DNA of 64,000 nt from Eledone cirrhosa (lineage: Eukaryota), in contig OZ024742.1 of NCBI GenBank assembly GCA_964016885.1, positions 132,618,001 through 132,682,000 on the forward strand. The letters are read 5' to 3'. This document shows positions 20,393 to 20,800 of the stretch, piece by piece (position 1 is the first letter of the stretch; every line of letters begins with the position of its first letter). Both the position numbers and the translations under genes were made by a program. The notes under the pieces are model-generated. The model ran no database searches. It worked only from the letters and a program-made list of their open reading frames with translations, and had not been told where the DNA came from.

Positions 20393-20800
20393 CTTCTTCC
20401 TGCTATTTCAAACGTTAAACTAATATATTCCTTCTATATACTGTACCGGCTGTGTTATTATTTCTGTTTACCATTTACATATATATATATATATATATAT
20501 ATATATATATATATATATATATATATATATATATATATATATATATATATATATATATATATATATATGTGTGTGTGTGTGTGTGTGTGTGTGTGTGTGT
20601 GTGTGTGTGTGTGTGTGTGTGTGTGTGTAAAATAATAAGTGTAAGTCAAACATCTTAAAGTTGGCTTCGTTTATTCCAATTCACTGCTATACATATTTCA
20701 CTGACCGCCATTATTGATTGTCACTGAAATATGTATAGCAGCGAATTGGAATAAACGAAGCTGAGTTTAACATGTTTGACTTACACTTATTATTTTACAC

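Follow-up and report, generated by a model that had tools for sequence, protein, structure and literature searches.

Within a 64,000-nt stretch of the Eledone cirrhosa genome, here the window, lies a palindrome at 20625-20800 whose axis falls on the stem II loop of a hammerhead ribozyme. This raises the question as to how an inverted repeat comes to be centered on a ribozyme hairpin. A first-pass annotation made from the letters proposed that cDNA stalls at the core of the ribozyme, then folds back via the pre-formed stem II and so self-primes the second strand, giving the ribozyme a second role at the DNA level.

The palindrome itself is confirmed. Its arms, 20625-20710 and 20715-20800, are identical at 77 of 86 columns about a best axis at 20712.5, with a TTAT loop at 20711-20714, and the RNA fold of 20660-20765 lies far beyond shuffled sequence (z = -15.8; 0 of 200 shuffles equally good). 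The focal arms are about 10% diverged and the copy is old; four of the nine mismatches lie no more than 10 columns from the axis (p = 0.014). The left, minus-strand arm carries the loop in the sense direction (ATAA). The right arm runs on past a later SINE into a tail, which the left arm lacks, and the focal feature thus extends beyond 20625-20800. Element positions are counted from r0, the first base of the stem II 3' strand in a natural copy, with L165 as the reference for a younger AAGA-loop subfamily and L008 for an older ATAA-loop subfamily, to which the focal locus belongs. The locus and other copies of its family in the window are laid out as follows.

19950-20095, no strand assigned: second head-to-head join of the focal family, 0.5 kb leftward, in (TA)n; a tailed minus arm joined to a tail-less plus arm of about 13 nt (by eye)
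20478-20625, no strand assigned: left target flank, (TA)n, then (TG)n microsatellite
20626-20716, minus strand: short (tail-less) arm, the 3' end of a Penelope-like element (PLE) pseudo-LTR, r-6 to r84 (BLAST to natural copy L008, 95%)
20711-20714, no strand assigned: palindrome axis, the stem II loop (arm alignment and intact relatives)
20715-20799, plus strand: long arm, part 1, pseudo-LTR 3' end r0 to r84, without the loop (arm alignment)
20801-20993, plus strand: SINE-like repeat, inserted later at the short-end site of the long arm
20994-21102, plus strand: long arm, part 2, PLE tail of about 105 nt, r79 to r187, on the right arm alone (85% to L008)
21091-21125, no strand assigned: right target flank, (TA)n microsatellite
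49775-49994, minus strand: older, non-inverted copy of the focal family, r-142 to r69, used for comparison in the first-pass annotation (decayed hammerhead, core 49868-49874)

From the ATAA loop of stem II, the short arm takes in the 3' half of that stem, GAAA, stem III and the cleavage triplet, followed by AATAAA and by TTTTA at its end. The join lies within a 7-bp inverted microhomology, ACAGCCA/TGGCTGT, by now partly mutated. The repeat inside the long arm, which we take from its appearance to be a SINE, is bounded by a 7-bp TTTACAC duplication (20794-20800 and 20994-21000).

Intact relatives read, in order, CTGC-CTGA[T/A]GA-G-GTCACAGCCA-loop-TGGCTGTCAC[T/C]-GAAA-TAT[A/G]TA-TA-GCAG, which places the focal axis on the stem II loop, as annotated. 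This is a minimal hammerhead, with CUGANGA, GAAA, a UH core, helices I and II and a palindromic helix III. Also upheld is the homology of the right arm to the minus-strand copy near 49825-49879 (70% over 81 columns against 49770-49848, E 7e-6); the hammerhead of that copy is decayed, with CTGGAGA for CTGANGA and GAAT for GAAA. Among 71 family copies, filtered to contain GAAA and stem II, the core is intact in 59, the TA triplet in 69 and helix I (CTGC/GCAG) in 52, and position 11.1 is T in 59. The focal locus holds the 3' half twice and lacks the CUGANGA half, just as first described, so it cannot cleave. Rfam found no hammerhead in an intact family copy, nor among the 150 of 253 matches listed for the whole window, which were microsatellite-driven miRNA matches; a repeat search of the window was dominated by microsatellites. 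The family resembles the minimal type I hammerheads of PLE pseudo-LTRs in excerpts of PMC4209133 in its long helix II and short helix I, a helix III that is palindromic or absent, and nearby opposite-strand pairs, and differs from them in the doubled 3' half at the focal locus and in the T at 11.1 in most copies.

The parent element is an EN+ PLE, in agreement with the annotation, on the basis of its pseudo-LTRs, one-sided tail and an ORF joining a putative reverse transcriptase (RT) to a C-terminal GIY-YIG domain. Two loci (L162 and L165) hold a broken ORF with GGLYRDD and MGS motifs, which we take to be PLE-type RT motifs; a Pfam search of the ORF found no RT domain. Its Atlas look-alikes (0.93-0.96) are animal proteins, with RVT_1 in 19% of the members of one set. 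GIY-YIG (PF01541) matched at E 5e-4 and 2e-3, weaker than the curated cut-off, C-terminally and downstream of the RT motifs, with Cys/His residues alongside. In L162, pseudo-LTRs at 3700-4130 and 7798-8227 enclose the ORF, the tail is placed between pseudo-LTR and ORF start, and an inverted copy lies upstream; pseudo-LTRs of this family occur both direct (as partial tandems) and inverted.

The family is abundant. A search of the 3.0-Gb assembly with the right arm returned 1,339 candidates and 42 scored matches, the intact ribozyme region occurs at no fewer than 7,107 places within two mismatches, and a 27-nt 3' anchor has 5,491 exact matches. Joins at stem II number 15 exact and 26 within two mismatches genome-wide, and 24 of 27 candidates examined are true joins (L031, L172 and L175 failed the test and were dropped). 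These 24 are spread over different contigs and differ in their flanks and subfamily variants, and two that have one flank repeat in common carry the loop in opposite orientations. The join has therefore arisen repeatedly, and the single ancestral rearrangement that the annotation had named as the contrary case does not hold. A palindromic MITE-like family amplified from one ancestor was likewise rejected, as loop orientation, variants and arm ends vary over the 24 loci and the termini are asymmetric.

A sample chosen by the 3' anchor alone took the 100 listed anchors of the 5,491, from the first 70.4 Mb of C1, and yielded 78 loci once 8 duplicates were removed (L113 and L117 resemble one duplicated event and are counted as two). 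The sample covers a single chromosome arm and only the younger subfamily with the AAGA loop, whereas the focal copy belongs to the older one. Head-to-head pairs occur at 51 of the 78 loci, with 52 junctions. Arms have two fixed ends: a short end at TTTTA, which is r78 or, for the older subfamily, r84, and a tail end lying about 96-105 nt beyond it, the two ranges being r78-84 and r174-187. The 125 sampled arms comprise 66 tailed and 59 tail-less ends, and their pairing is uneven: where both arms reach a fixed end, 35 of 39 pairs join a short arm to a tailed one (p = 3e-7), the exceptions being two tailed with tailed and two short with short. At the other 13 of the 52 junctions, one or both arms end away from the fixed sites. 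Of 28 pairs with arms of unequal reach, 21 have the short arm extending further 5'. Arms typically overlap by up to about 220 nt, which produces long palindromes; in 7 of the 35 short and tailed pairs, they have at most 2 nt in common, and the tailed arm goes no further 5' than r77-r138, which is level with the short arm's start or downstream of it. In L126, neither arm lies within the other (r-530..-238 versus r-275..78), and L152 is marginally of this kind.

These arm ends bear directly on the snap-back model, because a fold-back copy cannot contain what its template lacks. Among the 24 stem II joins, 12 have the loop on a tail-less arm that faces a tailed one, 10 have it on the tailed arm and 2 fit neither pattern. 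At the focal locus and in those 12, the supposed copy is about 100 nt longer than the template arm, so simple snap-back fails there; the second arm is not contained in the loop-bearing arm, and the missing tail leaves the annotated mechanism largely refuted for the locus that inspired it. It does account for independent recurrence of the join, and the 10 others carry the loop where simple snap-back needs it, on the tailed arm. A second PLE family without a recognizable hammerhead, described below, nevertheless has the same architecture, and we regard a stall at the ribozyme core followed by self-priming on stem II as very improbable.

Nor is stem II a privileged joining site. Elsewhere in the pseudo-LTR, a 9-bp hairpin that is not part of the ribozyme gave 16 exact joins (16/16 verified) against 15 for stem II, and the TCATATGA palindrome upstream at r-146 gave 398, about 27 times the stem II count, ratios that are approximate since the search patterns differ in length (34 letters for stem II, 33 for the 9-bp hairpin and 26 for TCATATGA). 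Stem II accounts for 2 of the 52 junctions in the anchor-chosen sample; scaling suggests about 2,800 inverted loci genome-wide, with a stem II share of about 1-4%. Hence the predicted enrichment of axes at the stem II loop did not emerge, and a ribozyme-specific role at the DNA level, which would have been a surprise, finds no support in the counts. Counted per base, arm 5' ends come to 3.9 at r-150..-141 but to 0.29 at stem II itself, 0.22 on its upstream side and 0.14 on its downstream side, and these counts contain no pile-up at stem II of the kind that a stall at the core would leave. Few cDNAs end at stem II, and 15 joins at one register could still represent a local excess; the control hairpin lies closer to the main stop and hence has more opportunity, which may leave room for a modest one. 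Stem II is one minor join site among several.

Three further observations concern where arms stop. Inverted and single copies alike stop within r-150..-141 (39 of 125 arms), and the stop at r-147..-143 is likely a transcript start inside the pseudo-LTR. Several inverted arms end at r-112..-109, an AC-rich stretch resembling the tail end and possibly a third RT start. Near the predicted cleavage site, both arms begin at r22-23 in five of seven joins, with short inserted letters (L177-L179, L181 and L183), which is at most suggestive of a footprint left by cleaved RNA templates; the counts do not show that hammerhead cleavage makes the site a hot spot for truncation, with 7 joins near the site versus 7 at a control anchor.

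The junctions and flanks carry additional information. Overlaps of at least 5 nt occur at 13 of 50 junctions, versus 0.4% by chance, and 12 of the 50 have inserted letters, several copied from nearby sequence; we take such overlaps and insertions to resemble polymerase-theta end-joining. The arms of a pair agree at 315 of 327 polymorphic columns, compared with 62% between loci, which indicates that both come from one source template, and paired arms also have 15 rare variants in common. Two RNA templates per pair, a weak candidate that we set aside, would draw on the 12 differing columns and on L081, whose arms differ at a diagnostic dinucleotide yet have a private change in common. Listed pairs have microsatellite on both flanks. 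Where strand-asymmetric microsatellites make orientation readable (8 informative loci of 49), the flanks are direct at 6 and inverted at 2; a direct orientation is expected if flank DNA is not copied back. Target duplications are unreadable within (TA)n, and staggered nicks are thus not visible from sequence. The join contains no target remnant between the arms.

These data weigh on two explanations that require no special mechanism. Two independent insertions at one target site are a known source of transposable element tandems (excerpts of PMC5932611), but they predict random end pairing and mixed subfamilies, neither of which agrees with 35 of 39 short and tailed pairs and 315 of 327 matching alleles. 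An assembly artefact might be suspected since public contigs reach both focal arms and none spans the center, a circumstance that is uninformative as to the palindrome's reality. It would, however, yield identical arms and could not account for a SINE on one arm only; the arm divergence, the nested SINE and the 24 similar loci all disfavor it. Double insertion or artefact is, overall, the least probable origin we considered, with very little chance of being correct.

A stronger competitor is self-copying followed by trimming, in which a tail-started cDNA folds back at a microhomology and copies itself, giving a hairpin whose two arms both have a tail, and the endonuclease trims either arm at TTTTA/CA on integration. 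Such a process accounts for the identical arm alleles, for loops on either arm and even for arms that do not overlap. In the available excerpts, PMC3846280 invokes self-priming to explain PLE inverted junctions and PMC8557442 invokes endonuclease resolution to explain the tail, and the SINE at the TTTTA site in 15 of 42 older loci implies that the site can be cut. Yet both arm ends match RT starts observed in vitro (excerpts of PMC11167929), neither arm contains the other in L126 and, marginally, in L152, and in most of the non-overlapping pairs, 0-3 nt of homology would have to close a loop of about 250 nt. In addition, target-primed reverse transcription (TPRT) ties the first arm's tail to the target, so trimming would detach the insert. 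We consider self-copying with trimming unlikely.

The counted pairing of tailed with tail-less ends, together with arms that have no sequence in common, argues for two priming events rather than self-priming or endonuclease resolution. Our preferred reading, to which we assign a probability of roughly 60%, is that these head-to-head, 5'-truncated PLE ends, one tailed and one tail-less, were likely twin-primed on both strands of a microsatellite and, at the focal locus, likely annealed at the 7-bp stem II arms. The endonuclease would nick both strands of (TA)n. On one strand, an RT would begin at the tail end; on the opposite strand, another would begin about 96 nt upstream, mostly using the same RNA. 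Both cDNAs would be antisense and head toward the 5' end of the RNA, with the neighborhood of r-145 as their commonest stopping point. Being of the same sense, their ends could pair only at inverted repeats of the element, which is why palindromes and hairpin stems, stem II included, would serve as axes. End-joining repair would then seal the join, with ribozyme catalysis and the RNA fold both dispensable. We infer the order of events, the use of a single RNA and the repair pathway. The pairs display the inverted fragments, single source template and microhomology or inserted letters that characterize twin-primed insertions; counting against the twin-priming reading, the allele agreement fits self-copying equally well.

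For the focal locus taken singly, a later deletion within a longer palindrome would yield the identical sequence. Long perfect palindromes are unstable, and one with, for example, a TCATATGA axis could have lost its center between the two direct copies of ACAGCCA or TGGCTGT to which a head-to-head arrangement gives rise. Such a collapse addresses the origin of the stem II axis alone and is compatible with a twin-primed original insertion. It predicts loops on either arm (12 versus 10) and a retained asymmetry of short and tailed ends, and the focal copy, with arms about 10% apart, is old. Young stem II joins speak against it, with 0 arm differences in L034, L038, L039, L042 and L044, as does a similar mean arm divergence in both groups, about 1.8% at stem II joins versus 1.4% in other pairs, a comparison in which selection by exact pattern favors young copies. 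Later collapse therefore appears rather unlikely.

Much of this architecture has precedent. Excerpts of PMC8557442, PMC3846280 and PMC4209133 describe PLEs with inverted pseudo-LTRs, junction palindromes, a one-sided tail and hammerhead pairs on opposite strands, and the first of these papers lists the origin of the inverted ends and one-sided tail as an open question. Like the EN+ PLEs in the available portions of PMC8557442 and PMC3846280, the present family has a 5'-truncated inverted copy beside the 5' end, a one-ended tail, junction palindromes or overlaps, microsatellite targets, an ORF with a putative RT and GIY-YIG and a pseudo-LTR hammerhead. Its tail, at about 96-105 nt versus their 30-40, is longer, and the counted pairing of tailed with tail-less ends (35/39 here, 17/17 in the second family) and the arms without common sequence go beyond what those portions report. 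The first-pass annotation presented the fold-back primer role as apparently undescribed; since self-priming had already been proposed for PLE palindromes (excerpts of PMC3846280), fold-back is not new in general. The searched literature yielded no proposal of twin priming as the origin of PLE inverted pseudo-LTRs, although older papers may have one, and passages of bioRxiv 10.64898/2026.07.22.740005 contain nothing relevant.

Biochemical support for twin priming comes from the Poseidon PLE of Anolis carolinensis, as presented in excerpts of PMC11167929. In vitro, its protein cuts and extends both target strands, acts on AT-rich DNA and begins reverse transcription at two internal sites bounding the tail; it is predicted to form a dimer, and insertion does not need ribozyme cleavage. 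Start-site use did not differ between the two strands, a point against the twin-priming reading, in which each strand takes one site. Those excerpts do not link inverted insertions to these properties.

Twin priming itself is a LINE-1 concept, reportedly introduced by Ostertag and Kazazian in 2001. Both systems would place RTs on the two target strands and leave inverted fragments with microhomology, deletion or overlap at the joins (twin priming and 'dual priming' in excerpts of PMC2837659). In LINE-1, according to the same excerpts, the second primer acts at variable internal sites and the outcome is a minority one, whereas here the second start is apparently fixed about 96 nt upstream and 51 of 78 loci are involved.

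Is this architecture confined to one family? A second PLE family has 54,367 exact anchors, of which we examined 26 loci after dropping 4 duplicates. Inverted structures were present at 17 of the 26, and all 17 pair a tailed with a tail-less end (12 by script, 5 by eye). Their axes lie near the family's own fixed stop, and no canonical hammerhead was recognized by eye. More families in the window have the same head-to-head shape. On this evidence, we consider the odds about even that asymmetric twin priming is a programmed PLE insertion mode, in which a protein dimer would nick both (TA)n strands and use two fixed starts on the same RNA, and host end-joining would fuse the cDNA ends at internal palindromes or hairpins. 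If so, it would be the main PLE insertion route and no accident, and one cycle would account for inverted pseudo-LTRs and the one-sided tail, both long-unexplained PLE hallmarks. The head-to-head structure is a known hallmark; the counted rule together with twin priming is a modest, testable advance. Thousands of copies here lend themselves to counting that rule (one tailed arm, one tail-less, one template, microhomology joins), which makes the question of PLE ends directly testable in the existing in vitro system, and twin-primed ends would account for a large class of palindromes in this genome.

Copies of the second family in the window lie at 39399-39513 and about 51790-51870 (others are L230-L263), mostly cut to ends of about 50-140 nt. 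A GCCGTCGAAACGGC hairpin adjoins the family's fixed 5' stop and may be a ribozyme of atypical form or mark an RNA start close to the promoter. The copy at 39399-39513 was rejected as a second stem II case, its axis lying outside any canonical hammerhead by eye.

The SINE-like family occurs within 45 nt of the PLE short-end site at 15 of the 42 older-subfamily loci, a few of which are perhaps the same locus twice, and at 0 of the 78 younger loci, with varied 5' junctions. Besides 20801-20993, the bearers include L002, L004, L005, L010-L012, L014, L017, L022, L023, L029, L030 and L216, among others. This distribution suggests that the family strongly prefers TTATTATTTTA as a target.

The window holds several other inverted structures. 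At 48051-48370, a head-to-head pair of another hammerhead family has its axis at a ACATATGT palindrome well upstream of the ribozymes and a tail of about 85 nt on the right arm only. The interval 23924-24323 forms a 99% palindrome, each arm 200 nt long, that lacks (TA)n flanks. A further hammerhead family forms an inverted pair about 3 kb apart at 58526-58652 and 61667-61793, with cores at 58613 (minus) and 61706 (plus), to which a short decayed palindrome at 57857-57951 is perhaps related. Perfect inverted 78-nt arms surround (CT)n(AT)n(AG)n at 52153-52456, a microsatellite-centered palindrome. Inverted ends at 22290-23174 (90% over 94 nt) flank a decayed reading frame that we presume, from its resemblance, to be a mariner-type transposase. 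Finally, hammerhead-like CTGATGA...GAAAC motifs of other families are present at 20360-20400 (by eye) and at 56765 (by motif scan).
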